Counted from the first letter of the stretch, positions 1-11,810 are shown. The stretch is DNA of 11,810 nt from a bacterium (GCA_041497675.1 JBGQGY010000113.1:1-11810); one strand, 5' to 3'. Numbers and translations are program-made. Notes: a model not told the origin generated them from the letters alone.

Positions 1-428
1 CCCATGGGATGGGCGTCGTGGTGGAAGCCGTCCAGGAACTTCTTGATCGATTCGTGGATCATTGTGTGGTGGGTGATCTCGGTGATCCACTCTTCAATCT
101 GGGTCTGCGTCGGTAGCTCGCCGCGCAAGACCAGGTAGGCGGTTTCCAGGTAGCTCGACTTCTCGGCCAGTTGCTCGATCGGGTAACCCCTGTACCGAAG
201 GATCCCCCGCTCACCGTCAACGTGCGTGATGCGGCTCCGGCACGCGGCCGTGTTCCCGAATGAGGGATCGTAGGCCATCAGGCCGAAGTCGTCGGCCGAC
301 GCCTTGATCTGCCTCAAGTCGCTGGCGTTGATCGCCGCCCCGTAGGTGGGATAAGTGCCATACAGGATCGGGAGTTCGTAGGACTTGCCGGTCCGGTTGT
401 CGGTGACCGTCAGGGTGTCCCTGCCCAT
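1..428 (-). CDS. gltA: Citrate synthase, N-terminal ~142 aa (runs off the left edge; absent from the ORF track)
   Basis: Manual translation from ATG at 428: MGRDTLTVTDNRTGKSYELPI...FGLMAYDPSFGNTAACRSRITHVDGERGILRYRGYPIEQLAEKSSYLETAYLVLRGELPT...FHHDAHPM. Contains the citrate synthase motifs YDP.F.NTA.C.S.IT..DG..G.LRYRGYPIEQLA and DAHPM. RBS GAGGAGGG at 442-435. Confidence 0.96.
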   Translation of the reverse strand, partial: MGRDTLTVTDNRTGKSYELPILYGTYPTYGAAINASDLRQIKASADDFGLMAYDPSFGNTAACRSRITHVDGERGILRYRGYPIEQLAEKSSYLETAYLVLRGELPTQTQIEEWITEITHHTMIHESIKKFLDGFHHDAHPM

Positions 429-913: not shown

Positions 914-1706
914 TGCTTTTGGCGCGTGCTAGGCCATCCGCGGGTACAGGTGGGCGGCTATGCCGACGAGAGCGGCTGACGCCCCGATGAGGACGGCGAA
1001 GTCGACCCCGAGCCCGAAGCCACTCGATCCGCCGGAGATCATCAGGGCCCGGAGCGCGTCGACTTCGTAGGACAGTGGATTGGCCACCGAGATCACCCGC
1101 AGCCACTGCGGCATCAGGCTCAACGGATAGATGGCGTTGCTGGCGAAGAACAGCGGCATGGTCAGGACCTGCCCGATGCCCATGAAGCGTTCCCGGGTCT
1201 TCACCAGGCAGGCGATGACGAGCGACAGCATGGAAAAGAGCGCGGATCCGATCACGATCAACACGAGCACCGCCAGGATGTGCATAGGTTGGAAACTCAG
1301 CGCGATTCCCATGGTGAGCGCCAGAAGGTAGACGATCACCGCCTGGGACAGCCCGCGTATGCCCGCCGAGAGTGCTTTCCCTAGCACGAGCGCCTCCCGG
1401 GACGCAGGACTGACCAACAACTTCTGCAGGATGCCGAGGTCCCGCTCCCAGATGGCAGAGATCCCGTAGAAGATCGAGACGAAGAGAGCACTCTGTGCCA
1501 GAACGCCGGGGGTCATGAAGTCCAGGTACCTTAGGCCCCCGGTCGGGACCCCCCGCACGCGGGCCATCACATTGCCGAAGACGACGAGCCACAGCGTAGG
1601 CTGCACCGCCCTGGTGATGAGTTCCCACGGGTCGTGGCGAAGCTTGCGCATCTCGGCATCGGCGATGGCGCGAACGTGGCCTCCGAAACGGAAGAGGCCG
1701 CCGGCG

Positions 1707-2507
<801 letters not shown>

Positions 2508-2526: not shown

Positions 2527-2985
2527 TCACGGAGTGTCCTGCTGACGAACCGTAAGCACGGGGATCCGACTGTACCTCACCAGGTGTTCCGCGACGCTGC
2601 CGATCAGCACATGCCCCAAGCCTGTCCGACCGTGCGTTCCCATGACAATGAGGTCAGCCTTGAGTTCCTGGGCCACGTCCAGGATTATGGATCGCGGCAT
2701 TCCCTCCCGGATGAGAGTTCGCGCGCGCGGCAGGCGGGCTGCCAGTTGTTTCATCGCCGTGTTGGCGTTGTTCTGTATCTCTTGGATCATTGCATCGTCC
2801 ATCCACAGACCGATATCTGGCGAGGAGGCCACGATCGCAGGGGTGACGAGGTCGAGGACATGCAGGAGCACAATCTCGGCCCCTGTTGCCTCTGCGATTC
2901 TCGCGGCCAAACGCAGCGCTGGCTCGGCCCCGGGCGACAGGTCAGTAGGAACCAGAATGAGCTTGAGTTGACTGGCTGCGGCCAT
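2527..2985 (-). CDS. Universal stress protein (UspA family)
   Basis: ILVPTDLS, LLHV and ADLIVMGTHGRTGLGHVLIGSVAEHLVRYSRIPVLTV (G-2X-G-9X-GS ATP-binding motif). RBS GGAGGGG. Confidence 0.96.
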   Translation of the reverse strand: MAAASQLKLILVPTDLSPGAEPALRLAARIAEATGAEIVLLHVLDLVTPAIVASSPDIGLWMDDAMIQEIQNNANTAMKQLAARLPRARTLIREGMPRSIILDVAQELKADLIVMGTHGRTGLGHVLIGSVAEHLVRYSRIPVLTVRQQDTP

Positions 2986-3114: not shown

Positions 3115-4071
3115 TTAGGTCACCGTCGGCGCCGCGTGCGCGGCTGTCGCAGCAGACATCGCCGCCTTGGCTTCCAGGGCCGCCCAGTTCTCTTCCACCC
3201 ATCTCTGCAGGCGCTCAGCCACATCGGGCGCCGCTGCGAGATGCTTGAAGCGGCCCTGCATCGCCAGCCAGTCGGCCACCGGCCGCACGCGCGCCGGTTT
3301 GACGGTGATGCGCCACCGTCCCTTTTCGACCTCGTACAGCGGCCAGTAGTGCGTGTCGACGGCAACCTGCGACAACTCCACCGTGAGGTTCGTGGGATAG
3401 TCCCAGCCCGGCTGGCACGGCGCCAGCACATTGAGGAACGACGGACCCTGCACAGCAAGGGCCTTGGTGATCTTCTTCGCAAGGTCACCCCAATGGCTGA
3501 TGCTGGCCTGCGCCGCGTAGGGGATGTTGTGCGCCGCGACGACTTCGGTGAGGTCCTTCCGAAACTCGACTTTGCCCGGAACCACCCGGCCGGCGGGCGT
3601 CGTGGTCGTGCGGGCCCCGGGCGGGGTTGCGCTGGAGCGCTGGATGCCGGTATTCATGTAGCCTTCGTTGTTGTAGCAGATGTACAGCAGGTCGTGACCG
3701 CGCTCAAGCGCGCCGGAGAGGCTCTGAAGCCCGATGTCGTAGGTGCCGCCGTCGCCGCCGATCGCGACGATCTTCGGCGGCGCATCCAGCCGGCCGCGCC
3801 GGACAAGCGCCCGCACTGCCGCCTCCACACCGGAGGCGGTCGCCGCCGCATTCTCGAACGCGCTGTGCAGATAGGGCACCGGCCAGGCGCTGTAGGGATA
3901 GATCGTGGTCACGACTTCCATGCAGCCCGTCGCGTTGATCACGACCAGCGGTTGCTTCGCGGCCGTCAGCAGCAGGCGAATGATCGTCGGGAAGCCGCAC
4001 CCTGCGCACGCCCGATGACCGGGCGCGAGACCTTCACCGTGCGTCGACAGTTCGCGCAGGTTGAGGCTCAT
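3115..4071 (-). CDS. porB: Pyruvate/2-oxoacid:ferredoxin oxidoreductase beta subunit (TPP-binding)
   Basis: GHRACAGCG, ATGCMEV, FENAAA, TPP motif GGDGGTYDIG...NNEGYMNTGIQRS, PCQPGW. ATGA overlap with the porA stop. Confidence 0.94.
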   Translation of the reverse strand: MSLNLRELSTHGEGLAPGHRACAGCGFPTIIRLLLTAAKQPLVVINATGCMEVVTTIYPYSAWPVPYLHSAFENAAATASGVEAAVRALVRRGRLDAPPKIVAIGGDGGTYDIGLQSLSGALERGHDLLYICYNNEGYMNTGIQRSSATPPGARTTTTPAGRVVPGKVEFRKDLTEVVAAHNIPYAAQASISHWGDLAKKITKALAVQGPSFLNVLAPCQPGWDYPTNLTVELSQVAVDTHYWPLYEVEKGRWRITVKPARVRPVADWLAMQGRFKHLAAAPDVAERLQRWVEENWAALEAKAAMSAATAAHAAPTVT

Positions 4072-5252
4072 GACTCGTCTCCTCGGACGCCCAGATACCC
4101 AACGGGTGGCCCATCGACCTCGCCGAGCAGCAGCGAGGCGACGGCATCGAGATCCTCTGGGCGAAGATCACGGCCGCCCAGCCCGAAGATTCGGTTGAAG
4201 AGCCGCGGGGGGGTCGCGGCTCCGTACAGGGCGGCCGCGGTATCCACGACGAGCGGCCCCCCGAGCGTGCTCAAGGTATCGGCTCGCTCGAGGACGGCCA
4301 CGCGGCTGAAGCGGGTCAAGACCGTGCGTACCGCCATCGCCGGGAACGGCCGGAACAGCCGCAGGCGCACCAGCGCGACCTTGCGGCCCGCATCCGCCCA
4401 GCGTGCCACGGCTTCTGCCGCCACGTCGGCTGTGCTGCCGAGCAGCATGATGGCACACTCGGCATCGTCCGGTCCCATGGTCTCGAGAAGGGGCGGCAAC
4501 GCCCGGCGGAAGTGGCGGTTGAACGCCTCCGTCGCCTCGTCCACCGTATGGATCGCGACCGTCATGGCCTCGGCCTGGGCCCGACGGAACTCCATGTACG
4601 AATCGGGGAGTGCGAGCGGTCCGACGGTAATCGGCGGGCCGGTCAGCACCGAGTATGCCGGCTGTGGTGTCCCGATGAACGCTCGAACTTCATCGTCCTC
4701 GAACACATCAACCGCTTCGAGGCCGTGGCTGAGGGTGAACCCGTCTAGACACACCATCGCTGGGATTCGCGCCGCTTCGGCGATGCGCACGGCCAGGATG
4801 GCTGTTTCGTACGTTTCCTGCACATCACGGCAGTAGAGCTGCATCCAACCCGCGTCCCGCGAGCCCATGGCGTCCGAGTGATCGCCGTGGATATTCAAAG
4901 GCGCCGAGAGCGCGCGGTTCGCCACGGCCATGGTGATGGGCAGGCGGAGTCCGGCGGCGATATAGAGCATCTCGTGCATCAGCGCCAGGCCCTGCGAGGC
5001 AGTCGCGGTCGTCACGCGTGCCCCACCGGCCGCGGCGCCGATGCACGCCGACATCGCCGAGTGCTCCGACTCCACCGGGACGAAGATCGTGCCGACGTCA
5101 CCGTCGGCGACGAACTGCGAGAACTTTTCAACGATCCCGGTCGACGGCGTGATGGGATAGGCGGCGACCACATCGGGGTCGATCTGCCTCCAGGCCATCG
5201 CGACCGCGTCGTTGCCGGTCAACCCAATTCGGCGCCGGGTGGCTATAGCCAT
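4068..5252 (-). CDS. porA: Pyruvate/2-oxoacid:ferredoxin oxidoreductase alpha subunit
   Basis: GNDAVA, AYPITP, VESEHSAMSACIGA, TATASQGL, ANRALSAPLNIHGDHSD, DGFTLSH, RLFRPFP, GLGGRD. Start at ATG 5252 (TGATG coupling to the upstream stop, RBS GGAGG). Confidence 0.94.
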   Translation of the reverse strand: MAIATRRRIGLTGNDAVAMAWRQIDPDVVAAYPITPSTGIVEKFSQFVADGDVGTIFVPVESEHSAMSACIGAAAGGARVTTATASQGLALMHEMLYIAAGLRLPITMAVANRALSAPLNIHGDHSDAMGSRDAGWMQLYCRDVQETYETAILAVRIAEAARIPAMVCLDGFTLSHGLEAVDVFEDDEVRAFIGTPQPAYSVLTGPPITVGPLALPDSYMEFRRAQAEAMTVAIHTVDEATEAFNRHFRRALPPLLETMGPDDAECAIMLLGSTADVAAEAVARWADAGRKVALVRLRLFRPFPAMAVRTVLTRFSRVAVLERADTLSTLGGPLVVDTAAALYGAATPPRLFNRIFGLGGRDLRPEDLDAVASLLLGEVDGPPVGYLGVRGDES

Positions 5253-6178
5253 CAGGTTTCCTCCGGGACCATGACGATCGAGTGCGCGCGTGGCGGGCAC
5301 ACCTCGGCGCAGATGCCGCAGCCCTTGCAGTAGGTCAGGTCGATCTGCGTGATCCGGCCGTCTTTGGTGATGATCGAGGAGTCAGGGCAGTACAGCCAGC
5401 AGAGCATGCAGTGGACGCACGTGCTGAGGTCGAGCCGCGGCTGTTGTTGCCGCCAGTCGCCGGTCTCGAACTGCCGGCTCGTCCCTGCCGGCATGTACGG
5501 GCCCGCCGCCGCATCCTGCCACCGGAGGCCCTCGCGTGCTTGCCGGCGCGGCGGAGCAGCCGTCCCGTCGGTGGTCCGAAGGGGGGTGGGGTTGGGCTGC
5601 CCCGCCAGCGCCGCGAGCACGGTGGTCGCAGCCGCGAGATTGCCCGCGACCACCTCAGGCCTGAACTCCTTGCCGAGCCGCTTCTCTAGCCAGCGCAGGA
5701 ACTCGTCCTGCGGCAGGAGATCGAGAGATGCAACAACTGCCGACAGCATCGGAACGTTGGGCAGGTCGCGACCCAGCGCGTCGCGAGCGGCCGACGATGC
5801 GTCCACGAGGACCAGACGGCCGGGCACGCGAGCCGCGATCGCGGCTCGCGAGTCTGGCGGCGCGTTGACGAACACGATCGTGTCCGGTGTCACGCCGTCC
5901 AGCGTCTGGGGCGCGTCGAGCAGCCCTGGGTCGAGCACCGCGATGGCGTCGGGATTCGTCACCGGGCCTCGCTGTGCGATACGATGATCGGCGATTCGGG
6001 TAAACGCCTGAACGGGCGCTCCCCGGCGCTCCGGGCCGAATTCGGGCGCCGCCTGCGCGTACCCGCCGGCGTCGATGATCGCCTCGGCGAGTAAGATCGC
6101 GGCGGTCTTGGCTCCGTACCCTCCGCGCCCGTGCCACCTGAAGGACAATGCGCGGAGCCCCACCCTGGTTGCGCTCAT
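5252..6178 (-). CDS. porC: Fused gamma-delta subunit of the 2-oxoacid:ferredoxin oxidoreductase (PorC + PorD), 308 aa
   Basis: Gamma motifs RWHGRGGYGAKTAA, PEFGPERRGAPV, PNVPML. A Pro/Thr/Ala linker follows, then delta motifs TGDWR, CVHCMLCWLYCP and CKGCGICAEVCP (2x[4Fe-4S]). ATG 6178 with RBS GAGGAG. Confidence 0.92.
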   Translation of the reverse strand: MSATRVGLRALSFRWHGRGGYGAKTAAILLAEAIIDAGGYAQAAPEFGPERRGAPVQAFTRIADHRIAQRGPVTNPDAIAVLDPGLLDAPQTLDGVTPDTIVFVNAPPDSRAAIAARVPGRLVLVDASSAARDALGRDLPNVPMLSAVVASLDLLPQDEFLRWLEKRLGKEFRPEVVAGNLAAATTVLAALAGQPNPTPLRTTDGTAAPPRRQAREGLRWQDAAAGPYMPAGTSRQFETGDWRQQQPRLDLSTCVHCMLCWLYCPDSSIITKDGRITQIDLTYCKGCGICAEVCPPRAHSIVMVPEET

Positions 6179-6342
6179 GCCGCTCCTCGTCGGCCGGCGG
6201 CTGGACCACCACCCGCCGGTCGGTCTTACGACTCCAGAATCGGCCCGGAGGCTCTCCCGAACAATCGGGCGGCGGCCCGATCTTGGGTCCGGCGCCGGCG
6301 GGCAGGGAGTAAGAACGCCATATCTCTTCGAATACTCCACCC
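6179..6342. promoter_or_regulatory. Divergent intergenic region (por operon vs moeA-mobB) rich in inverted repeats
   Basis: Non-coding gap between divergent starts. Stems at 6191-6200/6213-6222, 6264-6270/6275-6281 and 6224-6235/6306-6314. Confidence 0.5.
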
Positions 6343-8088
6343 GTGCCCAATGACGCGCCCCGCGAGAAGATGCGCCCCCCGAGCGTTGAGGACGCTCTGA
6401 CGATCATCCTGCGGGCGACCGCGAGGGGCGCTGCAGAGGATGTGCGGCTGCCGGAGGCTGCGGGTCGCGTGCTCGCGGCGCGCATCGTGGCGACGGAGGA
6501 TCTCTGGCCGTTCGCACGGGCGGCGATGGATGGCATCGCGGTACGCGGTGCAGATGTGGCCGGGGCGTCAACAGAACACCCCGTACGCCTCCTCGTGACC
6601 GGCGCCGTGTACGCCGGGCAGGCGGCGGATGGCGCGCTGCGGCAGGGGGAGTGCGTGCGCGTGGCCACCGGGGCGCCGGTGCCGACAGGTGCAGATGCGG
6701 TCATCCCGCAGGAATTGTTGCAGATCGACGGCAACGCCGTGTTTGTCTCACAGTCCATCGCATCGGGTCAGCACATCTTCCCCGCCGGTGAGGACGTACG
6801 AGCCGGCGAGCACGTTCTTGAACCAGGCATTCTCCTGCGCGGCGGCCATCTCGGGTTGCTGGCCTCGATGGGTTGTGCCACAGTGCCGGTCGTCCGCCGT
6901 CCGGTGGTCGCGATTCTGACTTGTGGCGACGAGTTGATCGATCCAGGGGAAGCCTTGCGCCCCGGCCTCGTACGCGAAAGTAATGGATACGCACTCTCGG
7001 CCGATGTGAAGGCCGTGGGCGCCCAAGCCGTGATGCTCGACAACGCGCGCGACAATGTGCGCGAGATGGACGACGCTATTCGGCGGGGGCTGGAAGCCGA
7101 TGTGCTCATCACCAGCGGCGGGTTGTCGGTGGGCGAGCGCGACCTCGTGCGGCCGGGCTTGCGGCGGGCGGGCGTCGCGATCGAGTTTGAAACCGTTGCG
7201 ATGAAGCCCGGCGCGCGGGTGGCGTTCGGTCGCATCGGTCACCGTCTGGTCTTTGGTTTGCCCGGCACGCCCAGCGCGTGTCGCGTCGCGTTCGAGATCC
7301 TGGTGGTCCCCGCGCTGCGAACCCTGCTCGGATATCGTGACGCAGTGAGACCGCGTGTGACCGCGCGTCTCACTGCGCCCATCCGGGTCCGGCCCGGCCG
7401 CCGGCGCTACTTGTGGGGTCTGGCTACGCTCGGTGCCGACGGGGTCGCGGTCGCACCGCATTTGGTGCAGAGTACCGCGACGCTGCGCGCGTCGAGCGAC
7501 GCGAATGCCCTCATTGTTCTCGATGGCGAGACCAGCGAACTTCGCGCGGGCGCCCGCGTCTCGGTGCACGTGCCGGACCTGGAGGCCCTAGGGGGCGCCG
7601 CGGCGCCGCGGCAGGACATCATCGGTATCGTCGGCGCGCGGGGCGCGGGGAAAACCAGGCTCATCGAACGGCTGATCCCCGCGCTGGCCCGGCACGGCGT
7701 CAGCGTCGTCGTTGTCAAACATCACGCCCATCAGCTCGCGCTCGATCAAGAGGGATCCGATACGGCACGCGCGGCGTCGGCGGGGGCCGTCCGTACCATC
7801 CTGGCGGGGCCGGGCGGCGTCACAACCCGTGCGCCGTCCGGCGACGATCCTTCGCTGGAGGACGCTCTTGCCCACGCCGGTCGTGCGGATCTCGTGCTTG
7901 TTGAAGGATTCAGTCAGTCCGCAATCCCGAAGATTCTGGTGCTGGGCGGAAGCGCGGGACCTGCAAAGACCCCTCCCGCTGGGCCCATCATCGCCACGGT
8001 GGGTGATGTCGCCGGCGCAGACGCAGACGTGTTTCGTTGGGATCACATCGATCGTTTGGCCCGTTTCGTCCTGACACGCAAGAGATGA
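6343..8088 (+). CDS. moeA: Molybdopterin molybdotransferase MoeA fused to a C-terminal MobB domain
   Basis: MoeA motifs GRVLA, PFARAAMDG, TGAPVPTGADAVI, GEDV, GDEL, ESN, TSGGLSVGERD, MKPG, GLPGTP. From ~7612 MobB motifs IVGARGAGKT (Walker A), VVKHHAH, GSDT, DLVLVEGF, PKI. Start uncertain (GTG 6343 or ATG 6370). Confidence 0.92.
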   Translation: MPNDAPREKMRPPSVEDALTIILRATARGAAEDVRLPEAAGRVLAARIVATEDLWPFARAAMDGIAVRGADVAGASTEHPVRLLVTGAVYAGQAADGALRQGECVRVATGAPVPTGADAVIPQELLQIDGNAVFVSQSIASGQHIFPAGEDVRAGEHVLEPGILLRGGHLGLLASMGCATVPVVRRPVVAILTCGDELIDPGEALRPGLVRESNGYALSADVKAVGAQAVMLDNARDNVREMDDAIRRGLEADVLITSGGLSVGERDLVRPGLRRAGVAIEFETVAMKPGARVAFGRIGHRLVFGLPGTPSACRVAFEILVVPALRTLLGYRDAVRPRVTARLTAPIRVRPGRRRYLWGLATLGADGVAVAPHLVQSTATLRASSDANALIVLDGETSELRAGARVSVHVPDLEALGGAAAPRQDIIGIVGARGAGKTRLIERLIPALARHGVSVVVVKHHAHQLALDQEGSDTARAASAGAVRTILAGPGGVTTRAPSGDDPSLEDALAHAGRADLVLVEGFSQSAIPKILVLGGSAGPAKTPPAGPIIATVGDVAGADADVFRWDHIDRLARFVLTRKR

Positions 8089-8137: not shown

Positions 8138-8590
8138 CTATTTGTTGGTGACCGGCAGACCGGCCGCCTTCCAGCCGCCCAGACCGTTGCGGATCGACCG
8201 CACGTTCGTGTAGCCCCAGAGCCGCAGCACCGTCATGGCGATGGCGCCGCGGTGGCCGATCGCGCAGTAGACGACGATGGGGGTGCCCCTGCCGTCCGGC
8301 AGCCTGTCCAGCGCCTTCGGCAGGTCGCGAAGCGGGATATTCACGGCGCCGGCGATGCGCTCGCCCTCGAACTCGGACTTCTCACGCACGTCGAGGATGA
8401 GCGGCTTGGCGGTCTCCATCAGTTTCTGGACCGTGGCCGGGTCGATCAGGAAGAAGTCGGCCGGGAGCGCGGTCAGGAACTTCTCGGTCGTCGTCAGCGT
8501 GTTCTTGTCGATCCAGTCCTGGCTGGTCGCCGGGACCGCGACGGCGAAGGCGAGCATCAGGCCAAGCAGGGCGACTAAGGTCTTTTTCAT
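8138..8590 (-). CDS. Exported single-domain rhodanese (sulfurtransferase), 150 aa
   Basis: Sec signal MKKTLVALLGLMLAFAVAVPA. Motifs LILDVREKSEF, IAGAVNIP, active site VVYCAIGHRG, GGLGGW-like NGLGGWKAAGLP. RBS GAAGGAGG upstream of ATG 8590. Confidence 0.93.
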   Translation of the reverse strand: MKKTLVALLGLMLAFAVAVPATSQDWIDKNTLTTTEKFLTALPADFFLIDPATVQKLMETAKPLILDVREKSEFEGERIAGAVNIPLRDLPKALDRLPDGRGTPIVVYCAIGHRGAIAMTVLRLWGYTNVRSIRNGLGGWKAAGLPVTNK

Positions 8591-8626: not shown

Positions 8627-9565
8627 TCACAGCCCGCGCTGCCCGGCGTAGACGAGCACCAGGCGCAGCGCGAGTCCTCCGATCAGGACCAGTGACGCCG
8701 AAAGTCGCGTCAGGCCGAACGTGGCATGACGCGTCTTGACTTCCACGATGCCGAGCGCCAACGGGACGACGATCCCGGCGGCGATCACCACCGGCCAGAA
8801 CGCCCACGCAAAGGTCCCCGTGATCAGCGCCGCGGCTGCGGCCTGTCCGGCCGCGGTGGACGTGGCCAGCCCAATCAGGTAGAGACCGACCAGCGTGAGT
8901 TCGACTGCTTCCACCGCGATCTCGCCGCGGACGAGCAGATGGTGCGCCGGCCCACCGGGGGCAACCATCAGCAGAAGCGCCGCGGCGGCCGACAACCCCG
9001 ACGCCAGGAAGAGTATCGGCAGAATCGGGCTGTTGAGCGCGGGCCGGGCCACCATCGTACCGAGCAGCACGCCGGTGTAGAGGCCAAGCGCCCCGCCCAA
9101 CACCAGGTTGATCCAGGCCAGCCGACGCATCCGCGGGCCGGCCCATCGCTCGACGCGTTGCAGCCACCGATGGAGCCGCGGGAAACGGCACACCCCCACG
9201 CGTGCGCGGATCGATAGGAGGGCGGGAATCGCCGCCAGCGAGGAGGTGAGGAGGATCGCCAGCAGGATCCAGGCCCCCCACGACATCGGGCTGCGCACGC
9301 GCAGGGTCAGGTAGAGCCAGAAGGGCGTCCACTTGCTGCCAAGATCGAGCCACAGCACGATCAGACCCAGGAGGATGGTCGGTGGCGTCAGTAACGTCGC
9401 CGCGCGTACGGCCGGCAAGAGCTCACGACGCCTCCCGGTCAGATGCGCCCACGACGCAAACATCAGCAGGCCGGCGGCCAGCCCGCCCAGGAAGAGGTAG
9501 ACGGCCACCGGCCATCCCCACAGGTGGAGGTGAGCGTTCAGCGCGCCGTCACGCAATTCGAGCAC
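8627..9565 (-). CDS. psrC: NrfD/PsrC-family membrane anchor (quinol-interacting)
   Basis: WGWPVAVYLFLGGLAAG, WLDLG, SPMSWGAW, YTGVLL, LPILFLASGLSAA, GGLALR..LVYAGQ. Many TM segments. GTG start with RBS GGAGGAGGT. Confidence 0.92.
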   Translation of the reverse strand: MLELRDGALNAHLHLWGWPVAVYLFLGGLAAGLLMFASWAHLTGRRRELLPAVRAATLLTPPTILLGLIVLWLDLGSKWTPFWLYLTLRVRSPMSWGAWILLAILLTSSLAAIPALLSIRARVGVCRFPRLHRWLQRVERWAGPRMRRLAWINLVLGGALGLYTGVLLGTMVARPALNSPILPILFLASGLSAAAALLLMVAPGGPAHHLLVRGEIAVEAVELTLVGLYLIGLATSTAAGQAAAAALITGTFAWAFWPVVIAAGIVVPLALGIVEVKTRHATFGLTRLSASLVLIGGLALRLVLVYAGQRGL

Positions 9566-10130
9566 TGCGCACCTCCTCCAGACTCACGGCGCCGTTGAGG
9601 AAGAAGAACTTGGGTTTCGTCCCCAGGTCGGGTCGGTCGACCTCGATCTTCTTGGCCGAGGCGAGCGTCTTGTTGATCGGGCTGTTGGCATCATCGAGGT
9701 CGCCGAAGACCAGCGCACGGGTCGGGCAGACTTCGACGCACGCAGGCTCGCGGCCGCGGGCGATCCGGTGGTCGCACAGCGTGCACTTGTCGACGAACCC
9801 ACGCGGGTGCGGGTAGCGCATGCCGTAGGGGCAGGCCGACACGCAGGCGCGGCAGCCGATGCAGATGTTGTAGTCGACCAGGCAGACCTTGTCATCGTTG
9901 ACATAGGTCGCGCCGGTTGGGCAGACGTCGACGCACGGCGGTTTCTCGCAGTGGTAGCACTGCATGTGCAGAAACATCAGGCGCAGGTTGCCTTCGTCGC
10001 CGACCGCCACCTCGCCGACCCGTCGCCGCAGGTAGCCTTCGGGCACGTCGTTCTCAATCGCGCAGGCAACGGCGCACGCCTCGCACCCGATGCACCGGTC
10101 GAGATCAACCGCCATCCCGTAGCGCGCCAC
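9549..10130 (-). CDS. psrB: 4x[4Fe-4S] electron-transfer subunit (PsrB/NrfC/DmsB family)
   Basis: CIGCEACAVAC, CYHCEKPPCVDVCPTGA, CIGCRACVSACPY, KCTLC, PACVEVCPTRAL.FGDL, GTKP. GTG start, RBS AGGAGG. Confidence 0.95.
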   Translation of the reverse strand: MARYGMAVDLDRCIGCEACAVACAIENDVPEGYLRRRVGEVAVGDEGNLRLMFLHMQCYHCEKPPCVDVCPTGATYVNDDKVCLVDYNICIGCRACVSACPYGMRYPHPRGFVDKCTLCDHRIARGREPACVEVCPTRALVFGDLDDANSPINKTLASAKKIEVDRPDLGTKPKFFFLNGAVSLEEVRSARIA

Positions 10131-10132
10131 GG

Positions 10133-11810
10133 CTAGGCCTCCTGTCCCTGCCGCGCCGATCCGGGACGCGCGCGCCCCGTCGGTTGCAGACGCACGAAGT
10201 TCACCCGCAGGCCGGCACCGCCGCTGATGGGATCCAGCGCGTACCGGGTCTGCAGCGCCGTGTCGCTCGCGCCCTTCTTGTGCGCGCGGCGCATACCCGG
10301 GGCATCGTGGCCAAAGCCGTGCACCAGGTAGACGCAGTCCTTGCGGATGCGCGCGGTAGCGCGGACCTTCACGGGGCCGCTGGCCGCGTTGTCCTGGTTC
10401 ACGAGCATGACGCGGTCCCCGGAGACCAGCCCCAGACGCGCGGCGATCGTCCGGTTGACCCAGACCTCGTTCTCGTCCATGAGACGCGTCAGCACCGGAT
10501 TGTTCTGCGTCCGGCCGAACGTGTGCACCGGCGCGCGGCCGTAGAGCAGGCGGAAGTGGCCCTCGGGCGGTTCGGCGACCGCTGTGTACCGCGGCAGCGG
10601 GTCGTGCCCGGTCTTCGCGAGTTCCTCGCAGTAGATCAGGATCTTGCCGTTTTGGGTCGGGAATGGCGACTTGCCCTTCCAGTCATCGAGATATGGCTTG
10701 CCCTTCTGGATGCTCACCCCGGCCTTCCTCATGTCAGCCAGGTTGAGGCCGACGGAGTTGAGCCGCTGTTCCAGATACTCCTCAATCGTCTTCCAGGGGA
10801 AGTACTGCTCGAGTCCCAGCCGCAGACCGAGTTCGCGCGCGATCCACCAGCCAGGTTTCGTGTCGTACATCGGCCGCACGACCGGCTGGCGCAGGGCGAT
10901 GAATGGTCGCTTGTGCGGGATCACGATCAGATCGTCGTACCGCTCGAGGTACGTGCACTCCGGGAGCACAACATCGGCCCACCGGATGTGGTCCTGCGGC
11001 AAAATGTCGATGGCGACGGAGAAGTCCAGCGCCTGCAGCGCTTTGCGGGTGCGCGCCGGGTTGGGCAGCGAGTGGAACAGGTTGACGGCGTAGGCGACCA
11101 ACCCCTTGATCGGGTACGGCTCGCCGGTGATCATCGGCTCGATCAATTCCTGGATCGCGACCCCACCGCGCAGGAACGTCTTGCGGGCACCGTCGGCCCT
11201 GGGCTTTCTTCCCGCGGGGACCTCCGGACCGGAGGTCGTCGGGCCCGCTCAGCCACCCGCCTCGGACCCGATTGGGAAGGGCGGCAGCGGGTACTCTTCG
11301 ATGTAGGGCGACTCGGCGATGTAGAGGCCGCCTTGCCTTCCCCAGTTACCCAGCAGGATGTTGACGAGGTACACCGCGCGCATCCGCTGCGTGTCGTTGC
11401 CGTACCAGACGACGTGTCTGCCGGGGACCAGCACTGCCCGCGGCCGCACGCGCGCCATCTCCCGTGCGATCTCGGCAATCTCATCGGCCGGGAGTTCCGT
11501 GATCTGCGCGGCCCACTGCGGCGTGAAAGGCTTCACGTGCGCCGCGAGTTTCTCGAACCCGTCCGTGTAACGAGCAATGTATTCGTGGTCATAGAGGTTT
11601 TCGGTAACCAAAACGTGCATCCACGCTAACAACAGTGCTGTGTCGGTGCCCGGTTTGATCGGGAGGTAGTGGTCGGCCTTCGAGGCTACCGTCGAAAACC
11701 GTGGATCCACGACCACGACCTTTGCGCCACGGGCACGCGCCGCCGCGAAGTCCTGCATCATCGTGTTGTGGGCGTTCTCGCCGATGTGCGTGCCCAGCAG
11801 GACGATGTAG
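10133..11810 (-). CDS. psrA: Mo-bisPGD catalytic subunit, PsrA/PhsA/SrrA clade (5'-truncated), read through an in-frame TGA at 11249-11251 as probable selenocysteine
   Basis: ORFs 11249..11761 and 10133..11146 share a frame (offset 615 nt). Continuous translation: YIVLLGTHIGENAHNT...VVDPRFS...IKPGTDTALLL...GNWGRQGG...PPFPIGSEAGG-U-AGPTTSGPEVPAGRKPRADGARKTFLRGGVAIQELIEPMITGEPYPIKG...WADVVLPECTYLER...HTFGRTQNN...HGFGH. These are DMSO-reductase-family motifs and the gene is followed by psrB and psrC. Confidence 0.92.
11214..11248 (-). promoter_or_regulatory. Candidate bacterial SECIS element directly 3' of the in-frame UGA
   Basis: mRNA: UGA GCGGGCCCGAC GACCUCC-GGUCC-GGAGGUC CCCGC. A perfect upper stem (11237-11219) begins after an 11-nt spacer and its loop contains GGUC. 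A lower stem pairs GCGGG (11248-11244) with CCCGC (11218-11214). Confidence 0.8.

Follow-up and report, generated by a model that had tools for sequence, protein, structure and literature searches.

Does the single TGA that interrupts psrA on contig JBGQGY010000113.1 of the bacterial genome bin GCA_041497675.1 end the protein, or is it read as selenocysteine (Sec)? The stretch analysed here (the window, 11,810 nucleotides) is one whole contig (C113) of this bin, which comprises 272 contigs and 3.97 Mb at 66% G+C and 98.6% completeness. The gene psrA, for the catalytic subunit of a polysulfide reductase-type molybdoenzyme, lies on the minus strand, and the contig ends within it; the frame is open from the contig end at 11809 and runs for 558 codons (11809..10136) to the true stop, a TAG at 10133-10135. 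An original prediction had described one TGA splitting an otherwise intact psrA and proposed a selenoprotein. The TGA (TCA on the plus strand at 11249-11251) is indeed the only internal stop in the 558 codons, the peptide quoted in that prediction matches the read-through translation exactly, and in the 558-residue read-through the Pfam domains Molybdopterin (PF00384) and Molydop_binding (PF01568) span both sides of the codon as one protein. The proposal itself is supported by Cys/TGA alternation among homologs, a hairpin behind the codon, the presence of Sec machinery and the selection acting on the gene. The best overall explanation, to which we assign a probability of about 0.88, is a Sec-containing PsrA of the Thermus type, with Sec in place of an invariant cysteine (Cys) that is not the metal ligand; the TGA is very probably a Sec codon at which Sec is inserted, the selenium itself being predicted from sequence.

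The remaining 5' end of psrA, about 200 codons, is on contig C68. The last 136 nucleotides of C113 (window 11675-11810) are identical to C68:1-136, and with this overlap of the two contig ends the gene can be joined. The C68 part encodes a twin-arginine translocation (Tat) signal (RRDFL), a CxxCxxxC...C cluster motif and the sequence FFGH...SVSMCTTPRE, whose His and Cys align with His145 and Cys173 of Thermus PsrA; Cys173 we take to be the molybdenum (Mo) ligand. Cys is the ligand type given for PsrA (PMC7331816, Table 1). Because the C68 residue aligns with Cys173 and the ligand type of PsrA is Cys, the metal-ligand position is read from the alignment as an ordinary Cys codon on C68, N-terminal of the window, where the original prediction had placed it.

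The TGA had been expected to align with a Cys of Thermus PsrA, and it aligns with Cys388 (2vpw_A). At this column Cys is found in 120 of the 120 best homologs (60-83% identity, motif [AS]GGC). All 94 genomes of the phylum were searched, and a psrA ortholog was present in seven, including the window's own genome (G000). Five of the seven carry TGA at the identical codon (G000, G009, G017, G005 and G029) and two carry TGT (G015 and G023), with the TGA carriers distributed over three genera of one family and a second family. Cys is absent from this column in the distant paralogs (28-32% identity) that related genomes encode. In G017 the N-terminal ~110 codons of psrA (L019, on G017:C5) lie in another frame, an apparent frameshift or assembly indel.

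A degenerate DNA pattern ending in TGA, scanned over a collection of species genomes, returned 70 stretches. Chance matches with stops or unrelated frames accounted for 49 of these and were rejected. The other 21 are genuine psrA loci of the TGA type, in which the sequence is open and conserved both before and after the codon; they come from Chloroflexota lineages, Anaeromyxobacteraceae, Ca. Methylomirabilis and Armatimonadota, two being in-phylum genomes again and two lying in one Anaeromyxobacteraceae bin. This last bin (G095; L036 and L061) holds two TGA-type psrA copies, the second of which, at a contig end, shows two TGA codons. An alignment-driven scan of metagenome contigs retained 70 loci, and among the 64 that cover the column the codon is TGA in 24, TGC in 20 and TGT in 20, so that the alternation anticipated among homologs is found. 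A protein database was also searched with the N-terminal 391 residues of the G009 ortholog, over a length range that excludes full-length proteins. This yielded 521 matches at E <= 1e-30, and 116 of the best 120 of these stop exactly at the column (...[AVTS]GG), as would be expected if annotation pipelines split the gene in the manner foreseen by the original prediction. Many of these fragments are on long contigs, under the labels Anaerolineales, Chloroflexi, Methylomirabilis and Anaeromyxobacteraceae. The Sec form of PsrA is widespread rather than peculiar to the window's genome.

A tree was built from 48 distinct rows (20 Sec, 28 Cys) of the 65 available, after removal of duplicates and of rows with fewer than 150 residues upstream or fewer than 300 downstream of the column. 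At least three changes between Sec and Cys are needed on it. A Sec clade of 17 rows (Shimodaira-Hasegawa-like approximate likelihood ratio test, 99) has as its sister group a clade of 17 Cys rows; both states occur in the Armatimonadota-type group, and all eight Thermus-like rows are Cys.

The machinery for Sec insertion, named as a check in the original prediction, is complete in the window's genome, with selA, selB, selC and selD on contigs C24 and C39. On C24, selA and selB are adjacent and the gene for tRNA-Sec is 2.5 kb further on (cluster C24:23715-29607); selD on C39 (15011-15934, L012) has its own Sec codon at the canonical site (…VACAG-U-ASK…). A selB above the cut-off is present in three of the four in-phylum TGA relatives (G009, G017 and G005) and in all five distant TGA genomes, that is, in eight of these nine and in nine of ten TGA genomes when the window's own is included. 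G005 carries both genes on one contig (G005:C4, 50122-51987 and 56865-58511), with selB ~5 kb upstream of its TGA-type psrA. The window's genome was also searched for a formate dehydrogenase of the Sec type; no such gene interrupted by a stop was found in it, so that to date SelD and PsrA are the only selenoproteins recognised there.

Just downstream of the codon, the transcript can fold into an element resembling a selenocysteine insertion sequence (SECIS). Its 8-bp upper stem GACCUCCG/CGGAGGUC (11219-11237) starts 11 nt past the UGA and closes the loop GUC, for a spacing of 19 nt between the UGA and the apical loop. The hairpin alone folds at -12.7 kcal/mol, a value equalled by 2 of 200 shuffles, and the 39-nt element at -22.1 kcal/mol, equalled by 7 of 200. 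The bacterial SECIS (bSECIS) model of PMC13188914 (Fig. 2 legend) calls for a loop of 3-9 nt, an upper stem of 4-16 bp, a G in the first two loop positions, a UGA-to-loop distance of 16-37 nt and a minimum free energy <= -7.5 kcal/mol, and the window hairpin lies within every one of these limits. Across the five in-phylum TGA sequences 39 of 40 stem cells pair, with all slid controls at or below 55%, and two pairs show compensatory changes: pair 16-32 occurs as A-U, G-U, G-C and C-G, and pair 17-31 as C-G and U-A. Genes of the Chloroflexota type have a different hairpin, (G)GAGGC-loop-GCCUC(C), ~17 nt past the UGA. This second hairpin shows little covariation, and the third positions within its stem are frozen (19 of 19 sequences each for Glu GAG, Leu xTG and Pro CCT); in the same 19 sequences, 3-4 different bases occur at fourfold sites that lie beyond the stem. 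Among 55 distinct metagenome contexts, an uninterrupted stem of at least 6 bp is present in 21 of 21 with TGA versus 8 of 34 with Cys.

In comparisons with five orthologs, the ratio of nonsynonymous to synonymous substitution (dN/dS) is 0.12-0.16 before the TGA and 0.13-0.23 behind it, and the downstream half of psrA is under purifying selection. Relatives that all carry Cys, combined with relaxed selection downstream, had been named as the signature of a simple nonsense mutation; what was found instead is a TGA that recurs and a downstream half constrained to dN/dS of 0.13-0.23. As psrB and psrC of the same operon terminate in TGA, like the neighbouring moeA-mobB fusion, TGA is not reassigned genome-wide. 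The next in-frame start is 34 codons past the TGA, beyond the conserved KPRADG, and re-initiation there would therefore lose conserved residues. The original prediction had also sought confirmation of the TGA in raw reads; the material is contigs rather than raw reads, and contigs of two additional DNA runs extend across the site, where no difference is listed for them; these runs possibly stem from related campaigns and so are perhaps not independent of the source sample. In addition, a 353-nt contig from a metatranscriptome library spans the codon with eight differences elsewhere, none of the seven listed being in the codon or hairpin; RNA libraries may hold DNA, and this contig does not establish transcription. 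At 11145-11361, one DNA run and one RNA-library run hold contigs that agree with the flanking sequence and have 221 different letters where the window has 215 bases, probably from a related psrA with a diverged loop region.

The residue at the column belongs to a distinctive part of the protein. Only six Cys are conserved in the alignments, namely the four cluster ligands, the Mo-ligand Cys and the Cys of this column. The last of these is embedded in the loop motif P-x-P-P-[FY]-x5-[AS]-G-G-[C/U]...K-x-R-A-D-G, which is present in the window. Every 50%-identity cluster representative was searched for the distribution of this loop, and 150 proteins were returned. Loop carriers among them are confined to the top cluster: P0241 (59% identity), the fragment P0288 and two truncated forms ending in AGG. 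The column is gapped in 140 of the 143 representatives that cover it, those at 49% identity or less having no loop, and no other representative of the 143 has GGC in that region. As only top-cluster representatives have the loop, the Cys/Sec sits in an insertion that defines a Thermus-type clade, and by these alignments the loop is not general to PsrA, PhsA or SrrA. The NCBIfam equivalog for PhsA (NF012032) was rejected as a classification, the G009 ortholog scoring 521 bits, below the cut-off of 694, and no selenoprotein-specific NCBIfam model matched this ortholog.

The AlphaFold model of the G009 ortholog (81% identical) has a mean predicted local distance difference test score (pLDDT) of 86 and superimposes on 2vpw_A with template modelling scores of 0.87/0.94 (Foldseek). 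Residues 362-423 form a long coil in which block-mean pLDDT is 84 just before the Sec, 52 at 391-400 and 71 after. In the crystal chain 2vpw_A, 734 of 765 residues are modelled, which suggests that there is little room for a disordered loop.

The psr operon further encodes a putative sulfur-handling partner. Its last gene specifies a rhodanese product of 150 residues (8590..8141) with the signal peptide MKKTLVALLGLMLAFAVAVPATS and the active-site loop CAIGHRG. A rhodanese directly follows psrC in five of five in-phylum relatives, Sec and Cys types alike, and is beside psrA or psrC in five of five distant TGA genomes. Where metagenome loci extend at least 4.5 kb downstream, 8 of 10 loci of the TGA type have it adjacent, as do 17 of 18 of the Cys type, and the three loci without it are short on the upstream side, on which the gene lies in some relatives; at any flank length the figures are 9 of 24 and 22 of 40. 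The family is small (248 database matches at E <= 1e-10, Thermus proteins included). A complex prediction for PsrA plus rhodanese, made with alignments for database proteins P0004 and P0403 from one contig, gave scores of 0.41, 0.00 and 0.00. In three Chloroflexota-labelled loci (L110, L113 and L114) open frames read as tandem double-rhodanese lipoproteins.

Several observations weigh against reading the codon as Sec or against a catalytic role for the residue. Folding energy of the whole region does not separate TGA from Cys contexts (mean z -0.67 vs -0.48, Mann-Whitney p = 0.27), and the 111-nt fold of the window is unremarkable (z = 0.03). The Cys ortholog in G015 retains the hairpin, so the stem is in part a by-product of the SGPE codons, and G017 has one stem mismatch. 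The selB search of G029, a genome 72% complete, found none, and since the Cys-type G015 has a selB above the cut-off, the choice of Cys or Sec does not follow the presence of the machinery. A structural function, or contact with the pterin, is conceivable for the loop instead, and the rhodanese link says nothing specific on selenium because it is equally true of Cys-type enzymes.

How far do these points favour another account of the TGA? A contig break inside psrA, in a bin fragmented into 272 contigs, might suggest a simple nonsense mutation, a pseudogene or a sequencing error. However, the same-codon TGA recurs in four other genomes of the phylum, 21 species-genome loci and 24 metagenome loci, it is kept in the contigs of two further DNA runs, and the sequence behind it evolves at dN/dS of 0.13-0.23. 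A single contaminating sequence is excluded because the TGA loci differ from one another (60-97% identities). The recurrence of the TGA refutes an error or pseudogene, to which we leave next to no probability. It is also improbable that the UGA terminates translation to give a two-polypeptide enzyme (N-terminal ~390 amino acids plus a re-initiated C-terminal part), or that a near-cognate tRNA reads through it with Trp, Cys or Arg and without selenium. The two halves do appear as separate proteins in gene calls and databases, but the 34 codons between the TGA and the next start (AGPTT...KPRADG...) are conserved and evolve under purifying selection, the homologs invariably have Cys at the column, the residue that classically alternates with Sec, and the codon is followed by a hairpin that fits the SECIS model and has compensatory changes. 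The TGA forms, moreover, sit in selB genomes in nine of ten cases, the window's own among them.

Within the reading of the UGA as Sec, the function of the residue is less settled. The original prediction saw in it a possible (per)sulfide or selenide carrier, or a redox arm, on a flexible loop near the substrate funnel. We consider a redox-catalytic function of the Cys/Sec at this column, as judged from its sequence context, somewhat the better bet. Sec may alternatively be inserted for structural or regulatory ends, as a contact to the pyranopterin or as a redox or oxygen-protection switch bonding the Mo-ligand Cys or the sulfido ligand. In favour of such a role, the loop begins where formate dehydrogenases carry an active-site Arg and the pterin-binding segment (HMMER alignment to 7vw6), there is no conserved partner Cys besides the Mo ligand, and Thermus and many other carriers are presumably facultative aerobes. 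Against it stand the long-branched Sec clade of 17 rows, which amounts to long-term retention, and the conserved rhodanese neighbour, which points to the handling of sulfane sulfur; Sec is also costly and usually kept at redox-active catalytic sites (PMC13188914, sections 5 and 7; PMC1794560, title and abstract). A structural or regulatory role thus seems unlikely to us, at odds well short of even.

With Sec as a catalytic residue, the enzyme would work as follows. SelB and Sec-tRNA(Sec) would be recruited by the mRNA hairpin just downstream of the UGA, and the ribosome would insert Sec to give a full-length, Tat-exported PsrA of ~760 residues, in which Sec would stand in for the invariant Cys of the Thermus-type clade loop and the Mo ligand would stay Cys. 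The Cys or Sec might then act as a catalytic chalcogen nucleophile that binds the sulfane sulfur of polysulfide or persulfide in an Se-S(n) adduct, the source of the sulfur probably being the co-encoded exported rhodanese, and this adduct could be presented or resolved at the Mo centre. Selenium would speed the attack on S-S bonds at neutral pH. A relay of sulfane sulfur from rhodanese to Sec/Cys to Mo is a tentative proposal, made because the clade combines a loop bearing a reactive chalcogen with a dedicated exported sulfur carrier. Equally speculative is a version with two catalytic chalcogen sites, in which the rhodanese would load Cys388 or Sec and the S-S(n) or Se-S(n) adduct would be cleaved reductively at Mo. 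The substrate of PsrA, polysulfide or thiosulfate, is suggested by homology and by the rhodanese neighbour.

Known systems place the predicted enzyme in context. Thermus thermophilus PsrABC (PDB 2VPW/2VPX/2VPY/2VPZ) has a PsrA 64-65% identical to that of the window, with the same fold by the ortholog model, and shares with it the Tat signal, the FS0 cluster motif, Cys173, His145 and the insertion loop; both systems have PsrB and PsrC, and a rhodanese homolog is nearby in Thermus-like metagenome loci. The two differ in that Thermus PsrA has Cys388 where the window psrA has UGA (predicted Sec). In Wolinella succinogenes, the Mo polysulfide reductase Psr receives sulfane sulfur from Sud, a periplasmic polysulfide-sulfur transferase of the rhodanese type. 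The psr system described here has its rhodanese gene within or next to the psr operon, and for the Wolinella-type comparison the homologs at 49% identity or less, presumably with the Wolinella enzyme among them, have no Cys/Sec loop. The Sec-containing formate dehydrogenases (FdhA/FdhF) and FwdB belong to the same superfamily of enzymes with Mo or W bis-pyranopterin guanine dinucleotide (bisPGD), that of dimethyl sulfoxide (DMSO) reductase, and likewise use UGA with a downstream bacterial SECIS. In FdhA and FwdB, however, Sec is the metal ligand in a UHxP motif (PMC13188914, Table 1), whereas in the window PsrA the ligand position is Cys and the Sec would come ~215 residues later, in the clade-specific loop. 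According to PMC13510729, MccSep/ExtKL of Geobacter also has a non-ligand Sec, with which it cleaves S-S bonds of polysulfide reductively in the periplasm; it is a multihaem cytochrome c of unrelated fold, with haem rather than Mo-bisPGD, and its Sec is experimentally proven where that of PsrA is predicted.

The recoding mechanism is standard and the enzyme family known; novel are the enzyme's occurrence as a selenoprotein, a Sec placed off the metal, the loop confined to one clade and the association with a rhodanese. The original prediction did not include the insertion loop, the operon rhodanese or the wide spread of the Sec form. A review of May 2026 (PMC13188914) tabulates 119 selenoprotein families of prokaryotes in its Table 1. 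The DMSO reductase family is represented there by FdhA and FwdB alone, in each of which Sec is the metal ligand; a PsrA-type entry is absent from that table, and the supplements could still list one. The main texts of the deep-Sep paper and of a 2022 review contain no polysulfide, thiosulfate or Psr selenoprotein, and full-text literature searches, with supplementary tables outside their scope, returned no Sec-PsrA. In the literature searched, which did not extend to the 2008 structure paper, no statement on the role of Cys388 was found.

If the codon is read as proposed, the selenoproteome gains a widespread respiratory enzyme, which joins a very small number of selenoenzymes in sulfur respiration and is the first member of the DMSO reductase family in which we found Sec at a site other than the metal. 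A systematic annotation error would be corrected as well, hundreds of database entries being half-genes. Because a Cys/Sec pair usually marks a redox-active residue, attention is drawn to Cys388 as a probable, so far unstudied catalytic residue of an enzyme with a structure published in 2008. The conserved rhodanese partner offers a putative route of sulfur delivery that can be tested. Selenium supply would be linked to sulfur cycling in sediment Chloroflexota, Armatimonadota, Methylomirabilis and Anaeromyxobacter. Should two chalcogen sites prove correct, the single-site mechanism drawn from a crystal structure without substrate (as the Shewanella Psr paper describes it) would be revised, selenium would have been adopted as an upgrade of the relay residue in about one third of the clade, and PsrA would be the first molybdoenzyme with Sec acting beside the metal rather than on it.

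Table 1. Coordinates of features in the window, listed from the proposed Sec codon outwards.
Feature	Position	Strand	Basis
In-frame UGA, residue 187 of the partial protein, equivalent to Thermus PsrA Cys388	11249..11251	-	alignment to 2vpw_A; read as selenocysteine (predicted)
SECIS-like element: lower stem GCGGG/CCCGC, 6-nt internal loop, 8-bp upper stem, GUC apical loop	11213..11248	-	folding, model constraints
psrA, 3' 558 codons (catalytic Mo-bisPGD subunit)	10136..11809	-	reading frame, Pfam, alignment to 2vpw_A
psrB, four-cluster ferredoxin (4Fe-4S) subunit, ends in TGA	9549..10130	-	Pfam
psrC, NrfD-type membrane quinol subunit, ends in TGA	8627..9565	-	Pfam
Exported single-domain rhodanese, last (fourth) gene of the psr operon	8138..8590	-	signal peptide, active-site loop
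moeA-mobB fusion, 581 aa, Mo insertion and cofactor guanylylation, convergent with the psr operon	6343..8088	+	Pfam
2-oxoacid:ferredoxin oxidoreductase, three genes: gamma/delta with ferredoxin domain, alpha, beta	3115-6340	-	
Universal stress protein	2527-2985		
ABC-2 transporter pair	929-2507		
Citrate synthase, partial	3-428		

Outside the window, the psr operon of G015 is likewise followed by a moeA-mobB homolog (L107).

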